Below, piece by piece: positions 1 to 59,493 of a DNA stretch of 64,000 nt. The notes under the pieces are model-generated. The model was not told where the DNA came from, ran no database searches, and was given only the letters and a program-made list of their open reading frames with translations. The DNA is taken from assembly GCA_022771205.1 (NCBI GenBank), contig JALFCF010000003.1, positions 269 through 64,268 of the forward strand. Direction: 5' to 3'. Source of the stretch: Mycoplasmatota bacterium (GTDB lineage Bacteria; Bacillota_I; Bacilli_A; RF39; UBA660). How positions within the stretch are numbered: the stretch's first letter is position 1; every line of letters starts with the position of its first letter. The position numbers and the translations under genes are program-made.

Positions 1-542
1 ATATAGCAGTTAATTCATATCCAGGTGTCGATAAAGATCATTCGGATGTAAAGAACTTATCTGATATGGCTGCTATTTTACAAGAGAATATTAAGACAAT
101 AAATGAATTAAAAGAAAAGATGATAAAAACTGCAAAAGAGTCACCTTACTTCGATATAATTAATTCTTTTTACGGGATAGGAGAAGTATTAACAACCGAA
201 TTATTAGGTGAATTAGGTGATATAACAAGATTTGATAATCATAGACAATTAATTGCTTTCTGTGGTTTAGATCCAACAATAATTCAATCTGGGAAAAGTA
301 TAAACGTGCATGGAACTATTTCTAAACGTGGAAATAAATATGCAAGATGGATATTATTTAATATTAGTCAAATAGTAGTTAAGTTAGGGCATCAATGTCC
401 TGGACACCCCGTATATGATTATTATTTAACAAAAAAAGCAGAAGGTAAACATTATTATGAAAACCTAACTGCTTGCTCTACAAAAATATTAAGAATGTTA
501 TATACAATGTGCAAAAATAATACAACATTCAAAATAAATTAA
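1..542 (+). CDS. IS110-family transposase, C-terminal portion (5' end lies upstream of the window)
   Basis: Reading frame is open from nt 3. Residues ...DITRFDNHRQLIAFCGLDPTIIQSGKS...ISKRGNKYARWILF match the IS110/IS1111 transposase C-terminal (Transposase_20-type) domain. Stop at 540-542. Confidence 0.8.
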   Translation, partial: IAVNSYPGVDKDHSDVKNLSDMAAILQENIKTINELKEKMIKTAKESPYFDIINSFYGIGEVLTTELLGELGDITRFDNHRQLIAFCGLDPTIIQSGKSINVHGTISKRGNKYARWILFNISQIVVKLGHQCPGHPVYDYYLTKKAEGKHYYENLTACSTKILRMLYTMCKNNTTFKIN

Positions 543-738
543 CAAATTAATTTTAACATATATATAATTACATTACACGAAAAAAATTAAAAAAACGCAT
601 ATTTTCGTGTTTTTAGTCGTGGTATAATATTAATATAAATTTAGTGTTGACAAAACTTAGATAGTCAATTTGTATGAGGGACTATTTTAAATAGTTCTTT
701 TTTGTTTGGAGGAATGATAATGATAAGGAGAATTATTA

Positions 739-1452
739 TTGCATAAACTAGATATTAATCAGGTTTATAATGGTGATTCAAATTTAATGATTAAATCAAT
801 AGAAAGTGAATCAGTTGATTTAGTTATTATTGATCCACCATACAAGATAAGAAAGAAAACTGATGAAATAAATAGTTTAGCAAAAGCAGTAAAAAAATAT
901 AATGAAGAATTACAAAGAGATAATTTAATAAATGAATATGATAAATCTATTTTAGAAGAACTTGTAAGAGTGATGAAAAGAATTAATATCTATATATGGT
1001 GTAATGGAGAACAAATACCATCGTATATAGATTTTTTTGTAAATAAGTATAAATGTAAGATGGATATATTAGTTTGGAATAAAACAAATGCTATGCCTTT
1101 ATTTAATAACAAATATATGACAGATAAAGAATATTGTCTTTATTTTAGAAAAGGTGGATATTGTAATCCACAATGTTATGAAGATGCTAAAACTGTATTC
1201 TATTTACCAATAAATTCAAAAGATAAAAAGAAATGGATTCATCCAACAATAAAACCTTTATCAATTATTAGAACTTTAATTAGAAATAGTTCTAAAGAAG
1301 GCGATTTAGTTTTAGATTGTTTTTTAGGTAGTGGAACAACAGCAGTAGCATCTATATTAGAAAAAAGAAACTATATAGGAATTGAATTAAATAAAAAATA
1401 TTATGATATTTCAATTCAAAGAATTAATGAAATTAAGGAGTGTGATAAATAA
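739..1452 (+). CDS. DNA methyltransferase, N6-adenine/N4-cytosine beta-class (motif IV DPPY before motif I)
   Basis: TTG start with AAGGAG 8 nt upstream. VIIDPPY (motif IV) near the N-terminus and LDCFLGSGTTAVAS (motif I, SAM binding) near the C-terminus. No adjacent restriction endonuclease gene. Confidence 0.75.
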   Translation: MHKLDINQVYNGDSNLMIKSIESESVDLVIIDPPYKIRKKTDEINSLAKAVKKYNEELQRDNLINEYDKSILEELVRVMKRINIYIWCNGEQIPSYIDFFVNKYKCKMDILVWNKTNAMPLFNNKYMTDKEYCLYFRKGGYCNPQCYEDAKTVFYLPINSKDKKKWIHPTIKPLSIIRTLIRNSSKEGDLVLDCFLGSGTTAVASILEKRNYIGIELNKKYYDISIQRINEIKECDK

Positions 1453-1928
1453 TGTATATAAGTAATGAAGAATTAGAAAAAATAAAAGAGTATGTAGATA
1501 ATCTTTATTGGGATCAAGATAGAATGAGTAGAGATGGGAGATACTTTTTAAATAAATTAGATAATTATATTAAAAAACTAGAAAAGGAAAAAGAAAATAA
1601 TATTTATGTAATTACTAATAATGCTGTAGTTGATGATGAAATTGATTATTCAATTTATGGAGTTGCAACAGATATCAATGAAGCAAAGAAAATATTTAAT
1701 CAAGCTGTAAAAGATGCAAAAACTGATTCTGATTTTGATAACTTAAATGCTATAGAAGAAAATTCTCCTAATTTTAAAAATAATGATGGTGAATGGATTT
1801 ATAGTGAATCAGATGATAGTTTTGAATTATGGTGTAATGGAGAATATAATTCAAATAATTATTCTATTCAAATTAAGAAATATGAATTAGATAAAGAAAA
1901 GGAATTAAGTGATGAGTATGAATTATAA
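1452..1928 (+). CDS. hypothetical acidic protein (element cargo)
   Basis: Start overlaps the MTase stop (TAATG). 158 aa, D/E-rich, no recognisable motif. Confidence 0.4.
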   Translation: MYISNEELEKIKEYVDNLYWDQDRMSRDGRYFLNKLDNYIKKLEKEKENNIYVITNNAVVDDEIDYSIYGVATDINEAKKIFNQAVKDAKTDSDFDNLNAIEENSPNFKNNDGEWIYSESDDSFELWCNGEYNSNNYSIQIKKYELDKEKELSDEYEL

Positions 1929-1939
1929 TATGGAGGATA

Positions 1940-3970
1940 ATGAGTATTAACATTATTATACTTTTAGTTGTGCTAATAGTTTTTACAATTGGATTTATGT
2001 ATATAGAACCAATGATGGCTAAGCATAAAATAAAAAGTGATAATGAATACGGTAGTGCAAGATTTTCTAGTAAAAGTGAGATAGAAAAATATTTTGTTAA
2101 AGAAAGAATAGGACACATCAGAGAAGCTGGTGTGCCTATTTTATTTAGTAAAGATTTGAAATATATGTGGGTAGATAAAGAAACCCCACACTATGTATAT
2201 TTAGGCTCTACTGGATCTGGTAAATCAGTAACAGCAGTTATTCCATTTTGTTCTTTTATAGCAACAGCAAAAAATAAAAGAAGTGTATTTATAACAGATC
2301 CTAAAGGAGAAATTTATAATACAACTTCATCAATGTTTAAGAAAAATGGATATAATGTTTTAACTATAGATTTTAGACATCCAGAATTATCAAATAAATT
2401 TAATGTATTAGAACCTATTATTAAAGAATATGAAAAGTATATTGAATACGAAAAGAAAACAAAAAAAGAAACAGATAAAAATAAAAAGTTAGAATATAAT
2501 AATTTATCTATGTCAGCACTAGCTGAAACAAATAGATTAATAACATCATTATCAACTATGATTATGGTTGAAAAAGTTCAAGGAAAAGATCCATTTTGGA
2601 ATAATAGTGCTAAAAATTTATTAGAGGGATTAATTGGATTCTTTTTAGAAGAATATAAATCAGGAAATATTAGACGAGATCAAATAACTATGACTAGTAT
2701 TAGAAAGTTCCAAAATAGTTCTATGGAAGAAAAGAATTTAAAGAACTTTAAAAAGTATATTGAACAAAAAGAATATGGTAGTAAATCAAAAGATTCTTTA
2801 ACTTCAATATTAAGTGCATCTGATAATACATTTAAATCAATAACAGCTGTATTTGGTGAGAAAATGGCTTTATTTGATGATATCAATGTAGCAAATGTAA
2901 CGAGTAGTAATAGTTTTGATTTTGATATATTAGGTAAAGAACCAACAGCTTTATATGTAATAGTTCCAGATGAAGATAAAACATATTATACTTTAGTAAC
3001 TATCATCGTAGGTCTTTTATATAGAGAATTAGTAAAACTTGCTAATTCAAGACAAGAGAAAAAATTGAAATATCAAATAGATTGGATATTAGATGAATTT
3101 GCTAACTGTCCACCACTTGCAGATATAGAAGCAATTGTATCAGTAGCAAGAAGCAGGGGTATGAGATTCCACTTCTTTATTCAATCATTTTCTCAATTAG
3201 ATAATGTATATGGTAAAGAAGTATCTCAAATTATTTTAGATAACTGTGGTCTTGTTTATTTAAAAACAAATACACAAGAAACAGCAGAAGCAATTAGTAA
3301 AAGATTAGGAAAGACAACAATTGAATCTAATTCTATTAGTCAATCAATGAGTTTAAGAGATTATAATGGAAATAAATCAACTTCATTAATTGCAAGAGAT
3401 TTAATGACACCAGATGAAGTAAAACAACTTCATTATAAAACTATAATATTTCCTATAATAGGATATCCGATATTAAGAGATACAATTATTTATAAAAAGT
3501 TTTCATCATATAGTAGTGGTGAAGAAGTTAGAACTGTAAATCCTTTAATTGATTTAAGTAATACATATTTTACTGTAGAAGATATTAAAGTAAAAAGAAT
3601 AGATCCTAAATCAAGAAATTCATCAAAAGATTTAGAACCAGTTGAATTAGAAGAATATGATGAAATGCTTGATTATGATAAACAATGTTTAAAAGAAACC
3701 GAAGAAATAATTAATAAGATATTTGGTATTGAAAATATAAAATATGATTATATAAAAACAGACAGTAATAGAGTTTATTGTTCTATTACAGTAAATAAGA
3801 AAATACCACAATCTGATAAATCAAAAGTATTATCACAAATAAATAAAAATAAATTTCATGTAGAAATTCAAAATGATAAAGATACTAAAACAATAATTGA
3901 AATTCATAATAAAGAATTAGATATGAATCATTTATTAGAACTTAGTAGAGGAGAAACGAATAATGTCTAA
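1940..3970 (+). CDS. type IV secretion/conjugative coupling protein (VirD4/TraG family)
   Basis: N-terminal TM helix, YGSARFSS motif, Walker A GSTGSGKS and the TraG/VirD4-type DPKGE motif. GGAGGA RBS. Confidence 0.7.
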   Translation: MSINIIILLVVLIVFTIGFMYIEPMMAKHKIKSDNEYGSARFSSKSEIEKYFVKERIGHIREAGVPILFSKDLKYMWVDKETPHYVYLGSTGSGKSVTAVIPFCSFIATAKNKRSVFITDPKGEIYNTTSSMFKKNGYNVLTIDFRHPELSNKFNVLEPIIKEYEKYIEYEKKTKKETDKNKKLEYNNLSMSALAETNRLITSLSTMIMVEKVQGKDPFWNNSAKNLLEGLIGFFLEEYKSGNIRRDQITMTSIRKFQNSSMEEKNLKNFKKYIEQKEYGSKSKDSLTSILSASDNTFKSITAVFGEKMALFDDINVANVTSSNSFDFDILGKEPTALYVIVPDEDKTYYTLVTIIVGLLYRELVKLANSRQEKKLKYQIDWILDEFANCPPLADIEAIVSVARSRGMRFHFFIQSFSQLDNVYGKEVSQIILDNCGLVYLKTNTQETAEAISKRLGKTTIESNSISQSMSLRDYNGNKSTSLIARDLMTPDEVKQLHYKTIIFPIIGYPILRDTIIYKKFSSYSSGEEVRTVNPLIDLSNTYFTVEDIKVKRIDPKSRNSSKDLEPVELEEYDEMLDYDKQCLKETEEIINKIFGIENIKYDYIKTDSNRVYCSITVNKKIPQSDKSKVLSQINKNKFHVEIQNDKDTKTIIEIHNKELDMNHLLELSRGETNNV

Positions 3971-4035
3971 TAATAAGATGTTATTCATTTTTTCTAATAT
4001 ATCTTCATACAATTCATTGAAAATGGAGGTTCTAA

Positions 4036-4251
4036 ATGTATAATCCAGACAATGATATTGAAATTAGATATAGCACTAAACATTTACCTATAGAGTATAA
4101 ATTGTTAGAGTGGAGATTAATTATCAATAGAGAGTTATATGAAGATAAAGTTATAGATTTAGAAGTATTTAGTGAAATGGAGAAATCTATTTTAGGAAGA
4201 ATGACAAAAATTAGAAATGAATATAAAGATAAACAAATTGTAACAAGTTAG
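4036..4251 (+). CDS. hypothetical small protein
   Basis: 71-aa ORF between the T4CP and recombinase genes. No motif. Confidence 0.3.
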   Translation: MYNPDNDIEIRYSTKHLPIEYKLLEWRLIINRELYEDKVIDLEVFSEMEKSILGRMTKIRNEYKDKQIVTS

Positions 4252-4335
4252 TTTAGATGATTTGACAAGGACAAACAAGAGAGGTAACATGGCATCGTAA
4301 ACTTTGGGAGGAGTTTCAGGAACACAGGAAAGGAA

Positions 4336-6180
4336 GTGGGAATAATGGATATAAAAAAAGCAAGAGAAGATTTAAGAAAAGGAAAAACAATATATGATAT
4401 GCCACTAAAAGTAGTATATTATGCTCGTGTTTCTACAGATAAAGATGATCAATTAAATTCATTAGAGAATCAACAAAATTATTTTGAAGAAATGATTGCA
4501 GAAAATAAGAATTGGAAATTTGTAAGAGGTTATATTGATGAAGGTATAAGTGGAACAGCTGTTAAAAATAGAACTCAATTCTTAAATATGATTGAAGCAG
4601 CTAGTTTAGGAAAAATAGATTTAATATTAACAAAAGAAATATCAAGATTTTCAAGAAATACAGTAGATTCAATTAAATATACAGAATATTTATTAAAACA
4701 AGGAACTATTGTATATTTCTTATCGGATAACTTAAATACTATTCAAGAAGATGCAGAATTTAGATTAACAATAATGTCTAGTTTAGCTCAAGATGAAGTT
4801 AGAAAATTATCAGAAAGAGTTAAATTTGGAATAAATAGAATGATAAAGGAAAGAAAATTAATAGGTGGAAACTTAACAGGGTATTATAAGAAAGACGGAA
4901 TGTATCAAATAAACGAAAAAGAAGCACCTATGATTAGATATTTATTTGAAACTTATGCATCTGGAAAAGTAGGACTTAAAAAGATTGGTGAAGAACTTGC
5001 TGAAATGGGATATTTAAATAGAAAAGGTGAACCTTATTCTCAAACTTCTATGGCTAAGTTCTTAACTAATCCTAGATATAAAGGATTTTATACAGCTAGA
5101 CTTACCGAAGTAGAAGATTATAAAACTCATAAAAAAGTTAATGTAGATAAGTCTAGACAAATAATTGAAAAAGATGAAAGAATACCTGCAATTGTATCAG
5201 AAGAATTATGGGATAAAGCAAATGCTTTACATGAGAAAAGAAAGAAATTGCCATCAAGACATATTTTAAATACTGAAGAAATGTTAGAACATTCTAAGTA
5301 TTCTTGTAAAATTAAATGTACTCATTGTGATCATATATATATCAGAAATGCTGGAAGTAATAGAGCAAATAATCCAACATGGTCTTGTAAAAATTATAAA
5401 GTAAATGGTGTAGATGCTTGTGCATCACCAATATTAAAAGAATCTTATTTAGATAAGATATTTATATCAATATTTGATGATTTTATAAATAATAAAAAAG
5501 ATTATTTAAATCAAGTTATTACTGAATATAAAAATATAGTTGAAAGTATTTCAAATAATAAAAGTTCAAAAGATTTAGAAAAAGAAATAGATTTAATAAA
5601 TAGACAAAAAGATAAATTATTAGATTTAAGTTTAAAAGGATTAATAAGTGATGTTGAATTCAAAAAGAGAAATGATGGATTCAATGAACAAATATTTAAA
5701 TTTGAAGAAGAAATAAAAAGGATAGATAATAAAGAAATAGAAATCAAAAAAATGAATGAAAAAATGAATGAGTTAAGCAAAGCTTTAACAAAGAAAGTAG
5801 ATATTAAGAATGAACTACCACATCTAATTAAATTATTAATTGATAGAATTGAAATAACTAAAGTAAATAATAATAGAAAACATGTAAGAATGGTAGTATA
5901 TTTCAACTTTAATACAGACATAATTGATAGAGAATTAGACTTATATGAAAAGAAAGAAAAACCTACTATAAAAGTAGATGTGAATTCATTACAAAGTGAT
6001 GAAATTTCTTTTAATCAAAAATGTTCCTGTATAGACCAGAATATTCGTTCTGGTCTATACGAGAACATAAATGTTGGTATTGGGAACATCAATGATATCA
6101 AGGAAAATGATGATTCAAAATGTTGCCGTATTCACCAGAACGAATCCAGGATTTGTAAAAATGGGCCAATTATTAGGTAA
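4336..6180 (+). CDS. large serine recombinase/integrase; 3' end of the ORF is read-through into host PBP DNA
   Basis: N-terminal resolvase catalytic domain (VVYYARVSTDKDDQLNSLENQ, ...EISRFSR...), recombinase domain, zinc-ribbon cysteines (CKIKCTHCDH...WSCKNYKVNGVDAC) and a coiled-coil segment. The native C-terminus probably lies near nt 5950-6030. The last ~50 codons come from junction/host sequence. Confidence 0.85.
   Translation: MGIMDIKKAREDLRKGKTIYDMPLKVVYYARVSTDKDDQLNSLENQQNYFEEMIAENKNWKFVRGYIDEGISGTAVKNRTQFLNMIEAASLGKIDLILTKEISRFSRNTVDSIKYTEYLLKQGTIVYFLSDNLNTIQEDAEFRLTIMSSLAQDEVRKLSERVKFGINRMIKERKLIGGNLTGYYKKDGMYQINEKEAPMIRYLFETYASGKVGLKKIGEELAEMGYLNRKGEPYSQTSMAKFLTNPRYKGFYTARLTEVEDYKTHKKVNVDKSRQIIEKDERIPAIVSEELWDKANALHEKRKKLPSRHILNTEEMLEHSKYSCKIKCTHCDHIYIRNAGSNRANNPTWSCKNYKVNGVDACASPILKESYLDKIFISIFDDFINNKKDYLNQVITEYKNIVESISNNKSSKDLEKEIDLINRQKDKLLDLSLKGLISDVEFKKRNDGFNEQIFKFEEEIKRIDNKEIEIKKMNEKMNELSKALTKKVDIKNELPHLIKLLIDRIEITKVNNNRKHVRMVVYFNFNTDIIDRELDLYEKKEKPTIKVDVNSLQSDEISFNQKCSCIDQNIRSGLYENINVGIGNINDIKENDDSKCCRIHQNESRICKNGPIIR
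6029..6060. repeat. perfect 13-6-13 bp palindrome gtatagaccagaa-tattcg-ttctggtctatac (candidate serine-recombinase att core)
   Basis: Read directly from the sequence. Sits at the element/host junction inside the recombinase read-through tail. Confidence 0.6.
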
Positions 6181-7003
6181 ACAAACGCTATTTAATTACA
6201 TTGATAAATTTGGTTTCGGTAATAAAACAGGAATAGATTTAAATGGAGAAGGAAAAGGTATTATTTTTGATCTAAATCAAGTCGGAAATGTAGAACTAGC
6301 TACTACAGCATTTGGTCAAGGAGTAAGTGTTACACCTATTCAACAAGTAGCAGCAGTCTCCGCAGTAGTAAATGGTGGAACATTATATGAGCCATATATC
6401 GTAAAAAGTATTTCAGAAAAGGAAACAGGAAATATTATAGACCAAACAAAAAAACAAAAAATAAGACAAGTAATTAGTAAAAAAACCTCAACAATTATGA
6501 GACATGCATTAGAAAGTGTAGTTGCTAAAGGTGGAGGAAAAAGTGCCTATATTGAAGGGTATAGAATTGGTGGAAAAACAGGAACAGCACAAAAAGTAAA
6601 GAATGGAGTCTATATGGTAGGAAATTATATTATGTCATTTATGGCTGTAGTTCCATCAAATAATCCAAAAGCAGTGTTATATTTAGCCATAGATAATCCT
6701 AAAAATACGGCTTTACTTTCTAGTTATACTACAACTCCGATAGCAAGACGTATTTTATTAGATATTATTGATGCCCTAAATATCCCTAAACAAGATGGAG
6801 AAATGAAAAAAGATTTAGAATGGACAGATATTCCAACACATAAAGTTCCCAATGTTGTTGATAAAACAGTAGAAGAGGCAAAAAAAGCACTAGGCAAATT
6901 TACTATAGAGTATTCAGGTACCGGAAAAAAAGTAGTCGCACAGTCTCCTAAAGCTAATGAACATTTAGAAGAAGGTGGAACTGTTAGGCTTCTATTAAAA
7001 TAA
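6071..7003 (+). pseudogene. 3' portion of a class B penicillin-binding protein gene (FtsI/SpoVD/PBP2B type with PASTA domain), truncated by the mobile element
   Basis: FGFGNKTGIDLNGE, the KTG box (GYRIGGKTGTAQ) and a C-terminal PASTA domain are present. The N-terminal dimerisation domain and the SxxK active-site region are absent. An in-frame stop sits immediately upstream of 6071. Confidence 0.65.
6127..6145. repeat. half-site-like imperfect copy of one palindrome arm (gtattcaccagaacgaat), 16 of 18 identical
   Basis: Matches the reverse complement of the 6029-6060 arm plus spacer (gtatagaccagaacgaat). Lies within the PBP remnant. Confidence 0.4.
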
Positions 7004-7072
7004 TTTTACACAAAGAAAAAAAGTAATTACTAGAAAAACTATAAAATAAGAAAAAATTATGATAAACTTAAA

Positions 7073-8782
7073 ATGGTGAAAGATATGAACGAGACAATCG
7101 GAGAAAAAGGTGGCAGAAGAGATAGAAAAAGAACTATCATTATAACCTCTGAAAATAAAAAGAAATTAAAAGAATATTATAAAAAAAAGAAGAAACTAAA
7201 ATTAGAAAAGTTAGAAAGAGAAGTAAAAAATCTCCAACTAGCTTCTTTTCTTGTGGCAGTTCCAATTTCTATTGCTGGAAATATATATGATGCAATGTTT
7301 CATGTTATAGATGAAACAAAAGAAGAAGAAAAAGAAAAAGGGTTACAAAAAGAATTACGAGATAAAGCCAAAGGATTACAAGTAGAAGAATTGCATCAAA
7401 CAGAAAAATTAGAATTAAGTGAAACATCTACTTACATAGAAGATTACCAAACAAATGATAGAAAATTTACAGACTATGGTTATCCAAAAACAATTGAAGG
7501 TAAGATGATAGTATCTTTAGCAGATAATAAAAAATTAAACAGTGTAAAGACAAATATCGAAATAACACTTCCACCGCAAATAGCCAAAACCCAAGTTTCT
7601 CTAACAGAAAACAATAAACTTGGAAAAAAAGAAGACATTTTGAATCAAACAAATCAAGAATCAAAAATAGAAGTATTGGAAGAAAAGCAAGATACAATAC
7701 CTATGCCGGCAGCAGGGATGTCTTTTATAGAAAATACAGTTTTTCAAAAAGCTCAAGATAAAACACTTGTCGTAAAATATGAAGAAAAGTTTAAGGATAT
7801 AAGAGAAGAATTAAAAGAATTAATATATGAGTACAATGTATTAGCCCAAGAAACTAATGACATATATACATCGAAAGAAGCAGAGAATATTTTACACCAG
7901 TTAAACATGGTTATAAAAAAATTAGAAGAGTTAAAAGGGAAAATTAAAGTAGAAGTTGCTGATTTAGAAAATGAGAATTATTTAATAGAATTAGTAGATG
8001 GGTATATAGAGAGCTTTAAAAATAAAAAGATAGTAGACGAAGTAAAAGATTCAGCTTTGTATATTATGCTTGCTGACAAGGTAGAAGAATTAACTACAAA
8101 AACAGGTAGTCTTAATACCAAATTAGAAGATAAAAAAGAAGAATTAGAATTAGATGAAGAAAAAATAGAAACACTAAAAGATGCTTATTATAATTATGAT
8201 AACTTCAATAACCAATTAATTTCTTTTCAATATGAGCAAGATTTTATGTTAAAAGAATTAGAACAGAGAGTACAGGAATCTACATCTATAACAGAACAAG
8301 TAGAATATAGAATACAATTAATGACAAAGCAAAGTAAAAGACTATTAAAAATGTTAGCACTTCCTATGATGATTCCAGGAGGCAGAAGTGCTAAAGCTAT
8401 GGCTACCGCAACAGCAGCTTATATGTATTTTATGAAAAACCTAATGAACCCTAGATTACAACAGAAAAAATATAGAATTATTTCGGTAACTGATTATAGC
8501 CGAGAAATAGAAAATAATATTTCTAAGGTAAGTGATGCCATCAATTTAATTGGAAAGACTTCTGATAAGTTAGAAGAAATGATTACAAAGTTGGAAAAAG
8601 ATTTCAAAGACTACATAGATGAAATACCTGAATGTAAAGAACTATTATCAAATTTAAATAAGCTATTATCAGAATTAAAACAAAAAGAAGAAGAATTAGT
8701 AAAAACAAAAAGTAAACAAGAAAATTTATTAGAAAAAAATAATCAAAAAGTAAAAACTTTAGAAAGAGTAGAAGAAGTGTAA
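7073..8782 (+). CDS. hypothetical K/E-rich coiled-coil protein with two hydrophobic segments
   Basis: 569 aa. TM-like segments LASFLVAVPISIAG (N-terminal) and LALPMMIPGG...AAYMYFM (C-terminal). Long heptad-like K/E stretches. Sits between the PBP remnant and mraY. Confidence 0.5.
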   Translation: MVKDMNETIGEKGGRRDRKRTIIITSENKKKLKEYYKKKKKLKLEKLEREVKNLQLASFLVAVPISIAGNIYDAMFHVIDETKEEEKEKGLQKELRDKAKGLQVEELHQTEKLELSETSTYIEDYQTNDRKFTDYGYPKTIEGKMIVSLADNKKLNSVKTNIEITLPPQIAKTQVSLTENNKLGKKEDILNQTNQESKIEVLEEKQDTIPMPAAGMSFIENTVFQKAQDKTLVVKYEEKFKDIREELKELIYEYNVLAQETNDIYTSKEAENILHQLNMVIKKLEELKGKIKVEVADLENENYLIELVDGYIESFKNKKIVDEVKDSALYIMLADKVEELTTKTGSLNTKLEDKKEELELDEEKIETLKDAYYNYDNFNNQLISFQYEQDFMLKELEQRVQESTSITEQVEYRIQLMTKQSKRLLKMLALPMMIPGGRSAKAMATATAAYMYFMKNLMNPRLQQKKYRIISVTDYSREIENNISKVSDAINLIGKTSDKLEEMITKLEKDFKDYIDEIPECKELLSNLNKLLSELKQKEEELVKTKSKQENLLEKNNQKVKTLERVEEV

Positions 8783-11410: not shown

Positions 11411-12499
11411 ATGAAAAATAGAATAGATAAAATTTTAATAGCAGCAATTATTATATTATCTATCTTTGGTATTATAATGATATATTCTGCATCTAGTATA
11501 TGGGCAGAATATAAATTTAATGATAGTTTTCACTATTTAAAATACCAATCTGTTTTTTTCTTGATTGGTATAATTATCATGTTTGTAGTATCTAAGATAG
11601 ATTATAAAATATATTATCAAAAAGCAAATAGCATTTTATTAACATGTATAATTTTATTGATTTTAGTATTAATTCCAGGAATTGGTAGTGTTAGAAATGG
11701 AAGTCGCAGTTGGTTTGGTATTGGTTCATTAGGAATTCAACCTAGTGAATTTGCAAAACTAGGTATGATTATATTCACTAGTAAATATTTGACAAATAGC
11801 AACAAATTTTTAAAGAGTTATAAACAAGGAGTTTTTCCTATCCTAGGAGTTTTATTTTTTTTATTTGGTCTCATTATGTTACAACCAGATATGGGCACAG
11901 GAAGTATTTTAGTAGTATCAATAATAACATTATTATTTATTGCAGGAGTAAACATGAAATTTTTTATAGGAATGGGAGTATTAGGGATATTTGGTGTAAT
12001 AATATTAATTGTCATAGCACCTTATAGAATGGATAGAATCACATCATTTATAGATCCATGGAGTGATGCTTTAGGAACCGGCTTTCAAATCATTCAAAGC
12101 TTATATGCTATAGGACCAGGTGGGTTATTAGGAACCGGTTTTTTAAATTCTATTCAAAAGCATTTTTATTTGCCAGAGCCACAGACAGATTTCATTTTTT
12201 CAATAATAGCAGAGGAGTTTGGTGTTGTTGGAGCTTTTATAGTTGTTGGATTATTTTCAATTATACTTTGGAGAGGAATAAAAATAGCTCTAGGTAGTAA
12301 AGATCAATTTGCTAAATATCTATGCATTGGTATGACTTTTCAAATTATATTTCAAGCAATTATGAATTTAATGGTAGTAATAGGAATGATCCCAGTAACG
12401 GGTGTAACACTTCCTTTTTTAAGCTATGGAGGTAGTAGTTTACTTATAACACTTTGCAGTATGGGAATTATACTTAATATATCTAAGTATGAAAAATAA
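11411..12499 (+). CDS. ftsW: SEDS-family peptidoglycan glycosyltransferase (FtsW/SpoVE/RodA)
   Basis: PSEFAKL, DFIFSIIAEEFG and [16 protein letters not shown] motifs. About 10 TM helices. Confidence 0.9.
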   Translation: MKNRIDKILIAAIIILSIFGIIMIYSASSIWAEYKFNDSFHYLKYQSVFFLIGIIIMFVVSKIDYKIYYQKANSILLTCIILLILVLIPGIGSVRNGSRSWFGIGSLGIQPSEFAKLGMIIFTSKYLTNSNKFLKSYKQGVFPILGVLFFLFGLIMLQPDMGTGSILVVSIITLLFIAGVNMKFFIGMGVLGIFGVIILIVIAPYRMDRITSFIDPWSDALGTGFQIIQSLYAIGPGGLLGTGFLNSIQKHFYLPEPQTDFIFSIIAEEFGVVGAFIVVGLFSIILWRGIKIALGSKDQFAKYLCIGMTFQIIFQAIMNLMVVIGMIPVTGVTLPFLSYGGSSLLITLCSMGIILNISKYEK

Positions 12500-12584
12500 A
12501 TATAAATACAAATTTATAGTTTAATGTAACAAAATATTGTTTTTTGTAGTATAATTAAAACATGAAAATGAAGGTGGCTATAAT

Positions 12585-13205
12585 ATGACATTTGAGGAAG
12601 AAATAAATGAATTAGAAAAATTAGAATTTGAGGATGATTTTACGATAAATAAAGGCACTATTCCAATTTTGTTTTCTGCCTGCCATACAATGATACAAAA
12701 CCATGAAAATTGTACAAAGCTAAATGAACCATATACAAAAGCGATTTCATTATTTTGCAATAGAAAATTTAATACTTATTCCATTATAAAAAATAATGAT
12801 ACTGGTGTTGATTCTAATAAAGATAATTACGATAGATATAATGTTGAGATGAGAAGACTAATTAAGACTTATGGAATAAAATTAGTTATTGATTTACATG
12901 GGGCATCTAAAGAAAGAGATTTTGATATAGAATTTGGCACTTTAAATAATTTATCAGCAGACTTTTCTACTATTAAAGAATTGGAAGAATCATTTATAGA
13001 AAATGGATTAACTAAAATAATTCATAATGATCCATTTAAGGGTGGTGCTATTACTCAAGGTATATATGGTATTGATAATGTTGAAGTTATCCAATTAGAA
13101 ATAAACGGAAAATTTAGAGATTATAATAATCTAATATTGTTACAAAATTTAATTAATGCTTTAGCAAGCTTTATAAAGCAATATAATGAATATATAAATA
13201 GATAA
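12585..13205 (+). CDS. predicted zinc-amidohydrolase-like protein (N-formylglutamate amidohydrolase / succinylglutamate desuccinylase-aspartoacylase superfamily), tentative
   Basis: LFSACHTMIQNHE and VIDLHGASKE motifs resemble the metal-binding segments of that superfamily. Weak call. Confidence 0.35.
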   Translation: MTFEEEINELEKLEFEDDFTINKGTIPILFSACHTMIQNHENCTKLNEPYTKAISLFCNRKFNTYSIIKNNDTGVDSNKDNYDRYNVEMRRLIKTYGIKLVIDLHGASKERDFDIEFGTLNNLSADFSTIKELEESFIENGLTKIIHNDPFKGGAITQGIYGIDNVEVIQLEINGKFRDYNNLILLQNLINALASFIKQYNEYINR

Positions 13206-13283
13206 GACATATATTGAGAATTTATAAAGTCTTTATATTATAAATGGAAGTGTAACCTAGTATTTTTATACCACACAAAAAAT

Positions 13284-13391
13284 GTTACTGGTGTTACATT
13301 ACCATTTTTATCTTATGGTGGTTCATCACTTTTAATAAGTATGGTGAGTATGGGAATTTTGTTAAATGTTTCTAGAAATATTAAAAGCTAA
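13284..13391 (+). pseudogene. orphan 3' remnant of a second SEDS (FtsW/RodA-type) gene
   Basis: Translates to [35 protein letters not shown]. This parallels the ftsW C-terminus at 12395-12499 at the protein level but is diverged at the DNA level. No SEDS body lies upstream. Confidence 0.6.
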
Positions 13392-13445
13392 TAAAACATC
13401 TTTATATTAATCAATACAAGTGCTAAAATAAATGTAGGTGATAAT

Positions 13446-13943
13446 ATGAACATAGAACTAGATTCGTTAGTATTAACAAGATATTCAGAAGAAAAACATA
13501 AAAGATTGAAAGAGAATTTTGAATCAGGAGAATCTCATTCAGATTTTATTTATCAAATAGGCTCAAGATTAGAAAATTCAAAAAACAATAATCGAAGTAT
13601 TTATCAAAGTGCTTTTGTTGTAGAAGACTTAGGAGTACCAGTCGGTTATTTATTTATATCTAACAGAATTCGTGATGAAGTATTTTTAGAATATGCTGTT
13701 TTAAAAGAATATAGAGGTATGGGCTATGGTAGTGACATAGTCAGACAGACAACAGATTATTTATTTCAAAATCATAACATTAAAGATATTAGATTAGATA
13801 TAGACCCAAGTAACAAAAATAGTATCAATACAGCAGAAGCTTGTGGCTATACATTAGACGAAGATGAATTTGCATCTCGTAATTACACGGGAAGAATGCA
13901 ATTTGTACAAGACAGTACATATTATGTTTCTAAACGTAGATAA
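13446..13943 (+). CDS. GNAT family N-acetyltransferase
   Basis: Acetyl-CoA binding motif region EYRGMGYGSDIVRQ. Confidence 0.7.
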   Translation: MNIELDSLVLTRYSEEKHKRLKENFESGESHSDFIYQIGSRLENSKNNNRSIYQSAFVVEDLGVPVGYLFISNRIRDEVFLEYAVLKEYRGMGYGSDIVRQTTDYLFQNHNIKDIRLDIDPSNKNSINTAEACGYTLDEDEFASRNYTGRMQFVQDSTYYVSKRR

Positions 13944-13978
13944 AAGTTATAATAGTATAAATAGTAAGTTGGTGTAAT

Positions 13979-14980
13979 ATGAAAGATATATCATTTGTTG
14001 TACCTTGTTATAATTCCGAAGCATACATGGAAAAATGTATTGATTCCTTATTAATAGGAAAAAATCAAGTAGAAATAATTATAGTTGATGATGGATCAAC
14101 AGATAAAACCGGTAAGATAGCTGATAATTATCATAAAAAATATCCTCAATCAGTAAAGGTCATTCATCAAGAAAATGGTGGACATGGTGAAGGAATTAAT
14201 GTGGGATTAAAACACGCTACTGGAAAGTATTTTAAAGTAGTAGATAGTGACGATTGGCTAGACGAAGAAGCTTATAAAAAATTATTACAGGAAATAAAAC
14301 ATATTGATACAGACTTAATTGTTTGTAATTATGTATATACATATACAGATGGAAGAAAAAATCAAGTAATTTCTTTTGCCAATGTATATGATGAAAATAA
14401 AATATTAAGTTGGGATGATATTCATCGTTTTAAACTAACACAATACCCATCTCTTCATTCAATGATGTATAAAAAAAGTGTACTAGACAAAAGTAACATT
14501 GATTTACCAAAACATGTTTTTTATGAAGATAATCTATTTATCTATTTGCCACTAGTAAATACAAAGACAATTTATTACTTAGATTTGGATTTGTATCGCT
14601 ACTATATTGGTAGAGCAGATCAATCAGTTCAAGAAAGTCAAATGGTAAAAAGAAGTTCTCATCAAGTATTAGTATCAGAAAAAGTTTGTACGAAATATGA
14701 TTTGACAAAAATAGAAAATAAAAAATTACGCAGACTGATGAGAAGAGAATGTATCTTCTTAATGACAATTGGTGTTGTATTCTCTAGAATATCCTATACC
14801 AAAGAAGGAGAAAAGCAGTATAAAGAGCTTTGGCAAAAGATAAAAGAAAAAAATCCAAAATTATATCACAGTATAAGATATACAACAATGGCTACTTTTG
14901 TTTCCTTCCCAACTAGACTAGGTAGATTTATATCGTTATTTGGATATAGATTAGCTCACAAGTTAGTAAAATTTAATTAA
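13979..14980 (+). CDS. glycosyltransferase family 2 protein
   Basis: SFVVPCYNSE...VDDGSTD...VDSDD GT-A signature. Confidence 0.8.
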   Translation: MKDISFVVPCYNSEAYMEKCIDSLLIGKNQVEIIIVDDGSTDKTGKIADNYHKKYPQSVKVIHQENGGHGEGINVGLKHATGKYFKVVDSDDWLDEEAYKKLLQEIKHIDTDLIVCNYVYTYTDGRKNQVISFANVYDENKILSWDDIHRFKLTQYPSLHSMMYKKSVLDKSNIDLPKHVFYEDNLFIYLPLVNTKTIYYLDLDLYRYYIGRADQSVQESQMVKRSSHQVLVSEKVCTKYDLTKIENKKLRRLMRRECIFLMTIGVVFSRISYTKEGEKQYKELWQKIKEKNPKLYHSIRYTTMATFVSFPTRLGRFISLFGYRLAHKLVKFN

Positions 14981-15158
14981 AAAGGGCAGAAAATGCCTTT
15001 TTTTCTTTCTAAATCAATAAAAAAACTACTATAAAACATAGAATAAATTCTAATACATGATATAATAGGTATGGTATAAAAAGGAATTTCCATTTTATAC
15101 TAAAAATATACTATAAAATTTACTTTATAAAGTTATAAATAAAAAGAAAGGAGAATAT

Positions 15159-15881
15159 ATGTTAGAACTTAAAGATATATGTTTTGAAAGATCTGGCAAA
15201 AAAATATTGGATCACATTAACCTAAAATTAGACGAACAAAAATTTTATGTTATTACAGGTCCAAATGGTTCAGGAAAATCAACACTTGCTAAAATTATTA
15301 TGGGAATAGAAAAACCTGACTATGGAACAATTTTGTTGGATGGCCAAGATATTACCAATAAAACAATAGATGAGAGAGCAAAATTAGGAATTGGATTTGC
15401 TTTTCAACAACCAGTACAGTTTAAAGGAATTACAGTATATGATTTATTAAAACTTTCAACAAAGAAAGAATTAACTAAAAATGAAGCCTGCAATATTTTA
15501 TCAAAAGTAGGACTTTGTGCAATTGAATATGTAGATCGTGAAGTAAATAAATCATTATCTGGTGGAGAATTAAAACGTATAGAAATTGCAACTGTGATGG
15601 CAAGAAATCCATATCTAGCTATTTTTGACGAGCCAGAAGCAGGAATTGACTTATGGAGTTTTCAAAATTTAACAGAAGTATTTAAAGAAATAAGTAAAGA
15701 ATCTTCAGGGACTACTCTTGTTATCTCTCACCAAGAAAGAATACTAAATATAGCAGATGAAATTATCCTAATGGGAGAAGGAACTATTCAAGAATTTGGT
15801 AGAAAAGAAGAAGTGTTCGACCAAATTTTTAAACCTAAAAAGTGCTGCAAGGAGGTGAAAACCTGTGGAAGCAGAAGATAA
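15159..15881 (+). CDS. sufC: Fe-S cluster assembly ATPase SufC
   Basis: Walker A GPNGSGKST. SufC-type GIGFAFQQPV and LSGGELKRIEIA motifs. Walker B IFDEPEAGID. Confidence 0.85.
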   Translation: MLELKDICFERSGKKILDHINLKLDEQKFYVITGPNGSGKSTLAKIIMGIEKPDYGTILLDGQDITNKTIDERAKLGIGFAFQQPVQFKGITVYDLLKLSTKKELTKNEACNILSKVGLCAIEYVDREVNKSLSGGELKRIEIATVMARNPYLAIFDEPEAGIDLWSFQNLTEVFKEISKESSGTTLVISHQERILNIADEIILMGEGTIQEFGRKEEVFDQIFKPKKCCKEVKTCGSRR

Positions 15882-16782
15882 AGAACTACTACAAGAAATT
15901 GTTGGTGAAAATCCAGAAAATGCAGATAGTTACAATATTAGAAAAAATGGAAAAAAAATAGAACGAAAAGTAAATCCAAATATTAATATCATATCTAAAG
16001 AAGATAATAGTGGAATTGATATATATGTAAAAGAAGACACTTTATTCGGTACAGTAAATATTCCAGTAATTATTACTGAAAGCGGTCTAAAAGACGTAGT
16101 ATATAATGATTTTCATATAGGTAAAAATGCTAATATAATTATAGTAGCTGGTTGTGGAATTACCAATAATGGTCACTGGGATGCCCAACACGATGGAATT
16201 CATAGGTTTTATTTAGAAGAAGGCGCTAAAGTAAAATATATTGAGCGTCATTGTGGACTAGGAGTAGGAGATGGAAAAAAAGTTCTAAATCCAGTAACAG
16301 AGATTCATATGGCAAAAGGCTCATATATGGTAATGGATACTACACAAATAAAAGGTGTAGATGATACGATTCGTACTACAAAAGCAGAGTTAGATAGTGA
16401 CGCTACATTAGTAATCACAGAAAAAATATTAACTAGCAAAAATCAACAAGCTAAAACAGAATTTGTAGTAAATTTAAAAGGAGAAAATTCATCTACACAT
16501 GTAACATCACGATCAGTCGCAACAGACAATTCATATCAAGAATTTATTTCTAATATTACCGGAAATACAAAATGTTATGCCCACGTGGAATGTGATGCTA
16601 TTATAAAAGGAGAAGGACAAGTAAAAGCAGTGCCAGAAATATTTGCTAAAAATGTAGATGCTAATTTAATACATGAAGCAGCAATTGGTAAAATTGCAGG
16701 AGAACAACTAATGAAATTAATGTCCTTAGGACTATCAGAAAAAGAAGCTGAAGAAGTTATTGTAAATGGATTTTTAAAATAA
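15865..16782 (+). CDS. Fe-S cluster assembly scaffold protein, SufB/SufD family (short form)
   Basis: GTG start after AAGGAGGTG. C-terminal SufB/D signature LIHEAAIGKIAGEQLMKLMSLGLSEKEAEEVIVNGF. Confidence 0.8.
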   Translation: MEAEDKELLQEIVGENPENADSYNIRKNGKKIERKVNPNINIISKEDNSGIDIYVKEDTLFGTVNIPVIITESGLKDVVYNDFHIGKNANIIIVAGCGITNNGHWDAQHDGIHRFYLEEGAKVKYIERHCGLGVGDGKKVLNPVTEIHMAKGSYMVMDTTQIKGVDDTIRTTKAELDSDATLVITEKILTSKNQQAKTEFVVNLKGENSSTHVTSRSVATDNSYQEFISNITGNTKCYAHVECDAIIKGEGQVKAVPEIFAKNVDANLIHEAAIGKIAGEQLMKLMSLGLSEKEAEEVIVNGFLK

Positions 16783-18902: not shown

Positions 18903-19172
18903 ATGTATAACTGGGAAATAGAAAAATTTTTAAAAGAAAGAAATTATTATATAGGTGGAGACGACTTATTAAAAGTAATCTCTATTTTGGAAAATCCTCA
19001 GTTGACTTATATAAAAAGATGTATGGGTGAATGGGAAGGCGAAAACGAAAAGTGTATTTATTATATGAAAGCAAAGGAAGATTTTAATCCCAATGAGGAA
19101 ATAGAATTTAAATTTTGTGCTATGCCATATGATGAAGCTAAAGCTAAAGGCTTAGTGAAAGTAAAAAAATAG
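18903..19172 (+). CDS. hypothetical protein
   Basis: 89-aa ORF with RBS GGGGGAAAAGGA and a terminator hairpin at 19171-19198. Confidence 0.35.
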   Translation: MYNWEIEKFLKERNYYIGGDDLLKVISILENPQLTYIKRCMGEWEGENEKCIYYMKAKEDFNPNEEIEFKFCAMPYDEAKAKGLVKVKK

Positions 19173-19284
19173 AGATGTTTTTTATCTCTATTTTTTTGAC
19201 TAAAATAAAAAGCTTTAAAAATATAGAAAAAATCTAGTCTATAATAAATAAAACTGCTACAATATAAATAGAGAGGAGTAAGTT

Positions 19285-24903: not shown

Positions 24904-25389
24904 ATGAATATTGATTTAACAGCCTTACATAGTCATGTGGTAGATAAAGTAGATATTACTAATATTTATACAATACCAGAGGATTATTTTGGAACTACAG
25001 GAGTAAAAAAGTTAGAAGATATTAAAGTAGATGGTTATGTGTACCTATCACCAAGTGAAGATGACATTGAAGAGGAAGTAGACAGTATTAATTGTAAAAT
25101 AGAAGGAAATATGATAATAGAAGATTCTATTTCCTTAGAGCCAGTACAATACCCATTTTCTATCAATTATGACGATATAATAGAAGAAAATTGCAAAAAA
25201 AATGAAAATACACTTGATATATTTTCATTTTTATGGGAAAATATTGTACTAGAGGTCCCTCTACAATTTACAAAGGTCGAAGACTTTTCTAAATTTCGAG
25301 GAGACGGATGGAAATTAGTGAGTGAAAACGAGCTAACTGAAAATAACAATCCATTTAGTGAATTACTAGATAAGATGAAAGAGGAGTGA
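24904..25389 (+). CDS. YceD/DUF177-family protein (large-subunit ribosomal accumulation protein)
   Basis: 161 aa, acidic. Conserved position immediately upstream of rpmF. Confidence 0.65.
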
Positions 25390-32200: not shown

Positions 32201-32294
32201 TAGAGCATTTTTAAAGAAAAAAACTAATAAGCAAGTAGAATGTTATTTGTATTCCATAATTGATGAAATGTTTAGAAAGATAAAAGAACAGTAA
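29184..32294 (+). CDS. addA: ATP-dependent helicase/nuclease subunit A (AddA, UvrD/PcrA-like)
   Basis: Walker A AGAGSGKT, UvrD helicase motifs, C-terminal PD-(D/E)xK nuclease MDLVIEKDEKLIIVDYK. Confidence 0.9.
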   Translation: MIMPTWTPEQQQAINEEGKNIIVSAGAGSGKTAVLTERVIRKLKSGVHINELLVLTFTNAAAAEMKERIRKAIRKTKGLEDEMNRIDGAYITTFDSFALSIVKKYHTVINCTNKIQITDDVVINIKKQQLLEEILDERYLLRDKKFTKLIHDFCYKDDKELKKALLDIYQKIELKYDKEHFLATYLDNYTKSWDKVIDDYLQSIKNKIREVKELLAEMSSYFDGKYMTKVEDYLYEFLNKESYEEKKKALDNFSRFPTLPKNSDERGKTLKKQLTEVLDEIKEEMIYGSIEEIKKELDSTVPNQEEIIDILQDLDRRLTSYKEEEEIYNFTDISRLAIKIVAENKEIREELTASFHEIMVDEYQDTSDTQEVFINLIANNNVYMVGDIKQSIYRFRNANPYLFKQKYDTYRDTDQGTKIDLVKNFRSRREVLEDINLLFNQFMDDEIGGADYQASHQMVFGNMTYEENGKTEDNHHMELFTYTLDKTTPITKDEQEAFIIGDDIQNKVKNNYQVFDKDTGIIRPIEYKDFVILLDKSKNFELYKKIFEYLGIPLSILKEESLSKDNDILVVKNLLNLIVRIKRKDDFNSLKYSFVSIARSYLFELSDEEIYDALVKEKIKETKLYQICNELSEMLDDTTPRELFLKVMKKVDYEEKLLKIGNVTSFQVRLEYIYNLIGNLEESGYTIEDIITHLDAIFDSGQDLKFNVNTDSSNSCKIMTIHKSKGLEFPICYFAGFASKFNLRDLKERILFDNNYGIILPMVTDFYKDTILKILVKEKTKQEEVSEKIRLFYVALTRAKEKMIMVTEQIEEETECSGIVSSSIRSKYNSFLAIIKSIYSSLLPYETKVNVTPSKDYLLSKNAIDEQQLLLSEDSINVHELEIEKEIIEHTRYSKDILHLSTKEEIEKMDFGTKVHQVLEQLNFKEPKLEYIPENIRRKVEAFINSSLVKENINGNFYPEYEFVDTNENTHGIMDLVIEKDEKLIIVDYKLKNIDDENYDKQLNGYRAFLKKKTNKQVECYLYSIIDEMFRKIKEQ

Positions 32295-32310
32295 ATTACT
32301 GTTCTTTTTA
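32286..32310 (+). terminator. rho-independent terminator after addA
   Basis: gaacagt-aaatt-actgttc followed by T5. Confidence 0.5.
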
Positions 32311-59237: not shown

Positions 59238-59493
59238 TTTGAATTGTATGCTACTATAATAAAATATTTTTATTGATATACATTTTAAATATAAATGCAT
59301 TAGCATTAAAAAATTATATATAATTGTATGAAATAGAATAAATATTTCATGAAGTTTTTGGAGAAGAATAAAATAAAAAAGTCAGCTATATAAAAGCTGA
59401 CTTTTTACAGAGTGTTGAACTTTGTCAACACTCTGTAAAGTAAACAGTAATGTTTACTTTTTTTATGATAAAATGAATAGGAGAGGTGATAAT

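Follow-up and report, generated by a model that had tools for sequence, protein, structure and literature searches.

A palindrome in a large serine recombinase gene as a probable second attP of an element inserted in a PBP gene

The element end and its junction with the PBP gene

A 64,000-nucleotide stretch of contig JALFCF010000003.1 from a Mycoplasmatota bacterium (the window, meaning the whole stretch that was analysed) carries a large serine recombinase gene that runs into the remnant of a class B penicillin-binding protein (PBP) gene, with a palindrome and a related site at the 3′ end of the recombinase gene. The recombinase open reading frame (ORF; 4336..6180, 614 amino acids, aa), which like all mapped features of this region lies on the + strand, reads through both sites and stops in out-of-frame PBP sequence. 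The 3′ fragment of the PBP gene (6143..7003) encodes aa 349-634, comprising the rest of the transpeptidase domain and a PASTA domain, and is cut at the Asn of the SxN motif; mraY and then an FtsW/SpoVE-family gene follow downstream. The original prediction for this locus had read the palindrome, at the junction of recombinase and PBP genes, as an attP-derived site and the related site as an attB-like half-site.

The palindrome, gtatagaccagaa-tattcg-ttctggtctatac, is a perfect 13-6-13 inverted repeat at 6029-6060, just as had been predicted, and a repeat finder extended it to 21-6-21 with 90% complementarity (arms 6021-6041 and 6048-6068). Measured against 60 dinucleotide-preserving shuffles of the window, it is non-random: perfect inverted repeats (arms >=13 nt, spacer <=10) arose 0.07 times per shuffle, and none had the G+C content of the palindrome. 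Its 13-mer arm occurs, with <=2 mismatches, at one other place in the 64 kb (31973). The predicted match of the downstream site, gtattcaccagaacgaat, to the palindrome arm plus spacer (reverse strand) was borne out at 16 of 18 positions, although the site starts at 6128 rather than 6127 and spans 6128-6145. The window contains four more perfect inverted repeats whose arms measure 13-15 nt (59404-59439, 19163-19197, 32282-32308 and 25198-25232), two of which are flanked by A/T runs and resemble intrinsic terminators.

Right ends that are identical over their 3′ 230 bases adjoin eight PBP alleles, namely those of the window and of loci L001, L004, L006, L008, L010/L011, L017 and L018, and divergence among these alleles always begins directly after ...CACCAGAACGAA. 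A 569-aa host protein encoded next to the PBP fragment led us to contigs of the host species whose downstream sequence is 99.8% identical and in which the gene for a 634-aa PBP is uninterrupted. The empty site in these contigs reads ...CTTCAGAATTCTTGT-AA-TCCAGGATTTGTAAAAATGGGCC (attB context CTTCAGAATTCTTGTAATCCAGGATTTGTAAAAATG), and the window is identical to it from 6143 on; empty and filled PBP alleles therefore coexist within one species. When the intact 634-aa PBP of L098 was used as a tblastn query, only aa 348-634 were found in the window (6140-7000, 99.65% identity), with aa 1-347 absent, and the ORF at 6071-7003 matched the transpeptidase profile from position 103 onward only, together with a PASTA domain. 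Since the empty site, the eight PBP alleles and the extent of the tblastn match agree, the chromosome resumes at 6143. The AA at 6143-6144 belongs to the Asn codon of S347-C348-N349-P-G-F, the SxN active-site motif of the class B PBP. Everything to the left of 6143, the palindrome included, can be assigned to the element on this comparison.

The actual element/chromosome junction, attR (6118..6169), was located from the empty site and the diverging PBP alleles. It consists of a P1 half-site at 6118-6142 (which includes the 18-mer at 6128-6145), the crossover AA at 6143-6144 within the shared AATC of 6143-6146, and a B′ half-site that starts at 6145 and covers the PBP codons P-G-F-V-K-M-G. The true B′ half, caggatttgtaaa..., lies to the right of the chromosome start at 6143.

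In L004, L005 and L007, an 11.6-kb element copy is present with both its ends. The attL of these loci reads ...AATTCTTGT-AA-TC-TTCTGGTGAATACAGGAACAC (longer form ...GTTGTTCAAAATTCTTGT-AA-TC-TTCTGGTGAATACAGGAACACATTT). Joining the two element ends yields the site that we call attP1, GTATTCACCAGAA-CGAATC-TTCTGGTGAATAC (also written AAATGTTGCCGTATTCACCAGAA-CG-AA-TC-TTCTGGTGAATACAGGAACAC), a 13-6-13 near-palindrome of the same build as the palindrome in the window. Two checks suggested with the original prediction were run and supported it: the left junction of identical sibling elements carries a related arm, TTCTGGTGAATAC, and the intact PBP gene of the same host species has a matching site at the codon in question. 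Its wider claim also held, in that the palindrome and the downstream site are attachment-site DNA of the upstream large serine recombinase, with the PBP gene as target. As expected for the large serine recombinase family, attL, attR, the empty attB and the reconstructed attP1 share AATC alone. Because of this shared AATC and the symmetry of the sites, the central dinucleotide is placed at AA, and AA/TT would be the dinucleotide exposed by the staggered cut.

Across a family whose members are 64-100% identical, insertion has taken place at this one Asn codon of the S-x-N-P-G-F motif in the PBP gene (window 6143-6160). The codon is also hit by members of a clade of ~50% identity, for example L069, L074, L086, L087 and the second recombinase of L026 (L069-L096; L026 7380-7440), which suggests that this attB in a catalytic motif is the speciality of two or more diverged recombinase clades. 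L014 carries in addition a second, unrelated-looking serine-recombinase element (11860-16060; 576-aa recombinase, redox-gene cargo), inserted at a different point, within the 5′ portion of its PBP gene.

Recombination products of the palindromic site

The palindrome and its flanks, referred to below as attP2 (6019..6070), have the make-up of a P-type site, with half-sites at 6019-6043 and 6046-6070, the spacer tattcg at 6042-6047 and the central dinucleotide TT at 6044-6045. Each of its arms departs from attP1 at two positions, with AG where attP1 has TC. Positions -12/-11 are thus AG/AG in attP2 and TC/TC in attP1, so that the arms are alike within a site and unlike between sites (6033-6034 and 6055-6056 versus 6132-6133 and the attL of L004); this pattern could have come from arm homogenisation or from selection for distinct affinities. 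The spacer of attP2 is the reverse complement of cgaata, and that of attP1 is cgaatc. On the recombinase strand the central dinucleotide of attP2 is TT, giving it a polarity opposite to that of attP1 and attR (AA). The polarity of serine-recombinase sites is set solely by the non-palindromic central dinucleotide, and AA and TT on the same strand therefore imply opposite orientations of insertion.

Junctions formed at the palindrome centre were found in other copies of the element. In L009, whose right-end module encodes an identical methylase protein, the recombinase 3′ end is identical to that of the window up to the palindrome centre, where GACCAGAATA-TT gives way to GCAAGAGTTTTGGAC, which is PBP codons V-Q-N-S-C-N in reverse complement. 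The left palindrome arm plus TATT thus abuts the PBP gene, whose 5′ fragment is on the other strand. L014 (71% identical) holds both attP2 products on one contig: the first is P2-left-TT followed by the reverse complement of the PBP 5′ part, and the second is the reverse complement of N-P-G-F-V followed by TT-P2-right, after which come attP1, intact, and the element's left-hand end. A degenerate-pattern metagenome scan recovered a reciprocal attP2 junction with intact attP1 in a third, sister lineage (L097). Further junctions of P2-left with reverse-complemented PBP sequence are present in L015/L016, L020 and L022, and the C-termini of homologues such as ...KI-ARVLDYL (P0004, P0026) are the translated signature of an attP2/PBP junction.

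In all of these attP2 events the exchange lies at the AA of the attB Asn codon, the element has the opposite orientation and attP1 is left unused, which makes the window the mirror case, with attP1 used and attP2 intact. Products of attP2 with the PBP attB were seen in four lineages, one of the copies having a right end identical to that of the window. Taken together, these junctions indicate that the palindrome is very probably a functional alternative attP with a complete P-O-P′ structure.

One locus, L026, contains a tandem array in a single PBP gene (1-7440), in which a long-form element (see below) with both attP2 and attP1 intact is joined at attP1 to another element by that element's left end; the recombinase of this second element (528 aa, 51% identical) lies directly against the 3′ part of the PBP gene. 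The array looks like accretion by recombination of an attP with attL or attR.

The recombinase, the paired sites and the rest of the element

The recombinase has an N-terminal resolvase-type catalytic domain with the active-site serine (PF00239, aa 26-172, E = 6.6e-29), in which an R-V-S-T-D motif is invariant in the recombinase alignment, and then a 'Recombinase' DNA-binding domain (PF07508, aa 194-302, E = 1.7e-18). The zinc ribbon PF13408 scored 24.8 bits against a cut-off of 25.3 in the window protein and is recorded for most of its relatives, which number in the thousands. The closest solved structures are the conjugative-transposon recombinase 3g13 and TnpX, and the symmetry of the P sites reaches 24-25 bp to each side of the centre. 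Apart from the zinc ribbon, which fell just short of the cut-off, the recombinase and its sites show the testable defining features of large serine recombinases.

Relatives of the recombinase fall into short forms (~569 aa), in which a single P arm directly abuts the PBP gene, and long forms (~600 aa), in which both sites are present. The predicted loss of recombinase homology near the palindrome accordingly holds for the short forms, which align to ~aa 565 (~nt 6030), but not for the long forms, which are homologous to ~6142. In the window, the inter-site segment (6071..6117) sets the centres of attP2 and attP1 99 bp apart and is read as the C-terminal tail of the recombinase. Besides the window's own lineage, this distance was measured in four diverged long-form lineages, where it is 96-99 bp and the recombinases are 66-68% identical to that of the window; L003 (70%) also has both sites. 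The motif TGTTC occurs at -22..-18 from the centre in 24 of 26 P-type half-sites, both arms of the palindrome included, and does not occur in B half-sites; owing to codon variation in the PBP gene, the B half-sites vary too much for a P-type versus B-type shift in distal-motif spacing to be read from them. In L003, a dyad matching at 20 of 21 positions has a different arm sequence, both arms having changed together. Dyad symmetry itself is not conserved, and the equivalent sites of L014, L071 and L025 fold little or no better than shuffles.

Where attP1 is intact, the recombinase ORF runs into the first ORF of the left end, and the C-terminus of the recombinase therefore depends on the state of the element. 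The tail of P0033 (657 aa; ...KFIENPLN...) matches the left-end ORF of L004 (3826-4754; ...KFIENPLNSIKQ...), and the 871-aa P0087 and P0089 may be fusions of the same kind. An ATG within the 47-bp inter-site segment opens the ORF at 6071-7003, which continues in phase into the PBP 3′ fragment (MLVLGTSMISRKMMIQNVAVFTRT-NPGF...) and which gene callers annotate as a transpeptidase/PASTA protein of 298-310 aa. Lacking a membrane anchor and the SxxK motif, its product is probably inactive.

Upstream of the recombinase gene lies a conserved right-end module (739..4251), which comprises genes for an N6/N4 DNA methylase (739-1452), a 158-aa ORF (1452-1928), a TraG/VirD4-type coupling protein (1940-3970) and a 71-aa ORF (4036-4251). 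The same module adjoins the recombinase gene in L001 and L004-L013, with varying cargo, and the methylase protein of the window is recorded in thousands of assemblies. The 71-aa ORF has no Pfam match and in relatives always stands directly upstream of the recombinase gene (71, 72 or 82 aa), making it a candidate recombination directionality factor. The element extends past the window start, and its left end is therefore not included. Conjugation functions are represented in the window by the coupling protein; no relaxase was identified, the left part of the element being outside the window. The sibling in L008 has type IV secretion genes (VirB4-like, PrgI, TrbL-like), which the 11.6-kb copy in L004 lacks. 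To judge by gene content, the first 6142 bases of the window are probably the right-hand part of an integrative conjugative or mobilizable element.

By megablast, the element had no match among PLSDB plasmids, and among phage records only distant recombinases were found (<=43% identity). An exact look-up of the window's recombinase and mraY ORFs returned nothing, probably owing to differing gene-start calls.

Cargo is highly variable among the siblings. In L006, L009 and L011, genes upstream of the methylase encode resistance-like Pfam domains: an EF-G-like domain, resembling a tetracycline ribosomal-protection protein, and Adenyl_transf, resembling an aminoglycoside nucleotidyltransferase. 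A fragment of an IS110-family transposase gene lies upstream of the methylase at the window start (66-542); sibling elements carry IS110 or other insertion sequences at differing places (for example, L010 14913-16106), pointing to secondary insertions.

A proposed orientation choice, alternative explanations and known systems

In the mechanism that we propose, the large serine recombinase would target the AA of the Asn codon in the PBP S-x-N-P-G-F motif, and the 3′ end of its gene carries a pair of complete attP sites whose centres are 99 bp apart. One of these, attP1 (core CG-AA-TC), would form from the two element ends in the circular element, and the other, attP2, would be the palindrome (core TA-TT-CG), with the opposite polarity. 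Recombination of attP1 with attB would insert the element in one orientation and recombination of attP2 with attB in the other, with one and the same recombinase presumably acting on both sites. The window would then have arisen through attP1, yielding attR at 6118-6169 and leaving attP2 idle at 6019-6070. Such an arrangement would give a choice of orientation while each site keeps its polarity, so that excision by attL × attR would stay clean, whereas clean excision and freedom of orientation could not be had together from one site with a symmetric centre.

If this mechanism is correct, the element can enter the same universally conserved PBP codon in either direction while keeping the polarity needed for clean excision, and as a by-product there would be three state-specific C-termini of the recombinase (circular, attP1-integrated and attP2-integrated). 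The presence of two complete attP sites, the positions of the junctions, the sequence and fixed codon of attB, the products of each attP with attB in opposite orientations and the conservation of the two sites are, as far as sequence comparison reaches, established. That the arrangement is an adaptive, built-in choice of orientation in a large family of gut-bacterial conjugative elements is a tentative proposal, toward which we lean slightly less than away from it.

Several observations weigh against the proposed mechanism. Many short-form relatives manage with one attP. By our tally of long-form loci in species-dereplicated genomes, attP1-mode insertions outnumber attP2-mode insertions by ~10 to 2, plus one locus, L026, whose tandem array retains both sites intact; attP2 may thus be a minor site or one that works poorly. 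In the lineage of the window, attP2 use is documented by one junction, that of L009, and an exact-pattern metagenome scan did not find the reciprocal attP2 junction of this lineage. The placement of the exact crossover at AA comes from site symmetry and the shared AATC and not from cleavage mapping, and the evidence as a whole is comparative. Finally, any benefit of a choice of orientation is hypothetical; orientation could matter through read-through into mraY and downstream genes, through antisense control of the recombinase gene or through direction relative to replication.

We weighed four other explanations of the palindrome. The original prediction, in which the palindrome marks the element/chromosome junction as an attP-derived hybrid and the 18-mer within the PBP remnant downstream serves as an attB-like half-site, would fit the end of short-form homology at ~aa 565 (~nt 6030) and the PBP-frame ORF that can open at 6071. 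It has virtually no chance of being right, however, since the same-species empty site and the eight PBP alleles put the junction at 6143, the empty-site comparison being enough to refute it; PBP homology begins at aa 348 (nt 6140), the sequence at 6061-6142 belongs to the element and is identical in copies in other hosts, and both arms of the palindrome are P-type. The palindrome is better described as an intact, unused alternative attP that lies wholly within the element, and the 18-mer as the P half-site of the true attR, with chromosomal DNA starting only at 6143. We also regard it as highly improbable that the palindrome is no recombination site at all but an RNA or single-strand DNA hairpin, acting as a terminator or stabiliser of the recombinase mRNA or in conjugative transfer. 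The predicted RNA fold is strong (-30.3 kcal/mol, z = -7.4), and the arm changes between the window's lineage and L003 are compensatory, both in favour of a hairpin; yet the equivalent sites have z values of -0.2 (L014), -2.2 (L071) and -3.2 (L025) even though the L014 site has recombined, natural junctions fall exactly at the palindrome centre, and the palindrome lies within an ORF. A terminator or RNA-motif reading was rejected, there being no T-tract at the palindrome, no terminator call at 5800-6400, no Rfam family and no conservation of the fold.

The other two explanations accept attP2 as a recombinase site. It could be an evolutionary leftover, from an inverted attP duplication or tandem accretion, that is occasionally cut and has no selected role. 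Tandem accretion does occur at this locus (L026), attP1-mode insertions dominate and short-form relatives do without the second site, but we consider a leftover unlikely because the layout, the 96-99 bp spacing, the ORF through both sites and the P-type motifs have been kept at ~66-68% recombinase identity, and because attP2 has been used in four lineages. In the integrated state, attP2 might instead serve as a recombinase-binding regulatory or accessory site, by titrating the enzyme, hindering or assisting attL × attR synapsis or acting on the 3′ end of its own gene. Consistent with such a role, what appears to be a full dimer-binding site stands 99 bp from attR inside the recombinase gene, and the C-terminus of the recombinase is not the same in the integrated states as in the circular one. 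As the sole explanation this is quite unlikely, because it leaves the natural attP2 × attB products unexplained; it could be an additional role and is then not a true rival. An alternative attP used on the PBP attB is thus the explanation that we prefer.

Serine integrases are prized, both in nature and in genome engineering, for strict one-site, one-orientation integration, and this element offers a natural test of how site choice depends on the central dinucleotide and on half-site variants (AG versus TC at -12/-11). It also points to a strategy of target choice: attB is the codon block of the catalytic motif S-x-N-P-G-F, which is unable to drift, and this would explain the identical right ends in at least eight PBP alleles of different uncultured gut Bacilli. 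Given the resistance-like cargo of its siblings, the family may also matter for the spread of resistance. The literature searched yielded no account of a natural serine-recombinase element with a dual attP, nor of the PBP SxN motif as an integration target. Within that literature, the dual attP of opposite polarity and the catalytic-motif target appear undescribed; the chemistry and the site logic are standard.

A pair of inverted recombinase sites ~90-100 bp apart on a mobile element recalls CTXphi, whose attP consists of two inverted XerCD-binding sites ~90 nt apart that pair in single-stranded DNA into one attP for tyrosine recombinases. Here, in contrast, each site appears to be a complete duplex serine-recombinase attP used alone, as the junctions in L014 and the window indicate, and CTXphi-like pairing of attP1 with attP2 in single-stranded DNA was rejected as the main explanation on these grounds. 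There is also a likeness with skin in sigK, SPbeta in spsM and the Listeria comK prophage, where a serine-recombinase element splits a coding gene at a precise codon, as it does here, and where conservative excision restores the gene, as it would the PBP gene. The present case differs in its target, the catalytic SxN codon of a class B PBP in an mraY/ftsW neighbourhood; in its hosts, which are metagenome-assembled genomes of uncultured gut Bacilli/'Tenericutes'; and in carrying conjugation genes (the coupling protein, and type IV secretion in L008) rather than phage genes.

The serine integrases of phages and conjugative transposons (phiC31, Bxb1, the A118/LI integrase and TP901-1; TnpX of Tn4451 and TndX of Tn5397) share the domain set of the recombinase described here. 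They likewise have an imperfect inverted-repeat attP of ~50 bp, a shorter attB (~40 bp) and a non-palindromic central dinucleotide, exchange strands conservatively without target duplication, and have the recombinase gene adjoining the site at one element end. To our knowledge, described serine-integrase systems have one attP per element. The element in the window and its long-form relatives differ from them in having a pair of complete attP sites, opposite in polarity and 96-99 bp apart, that are both used on the same attB, and in having a recombinase ORF that is translated through both sites.

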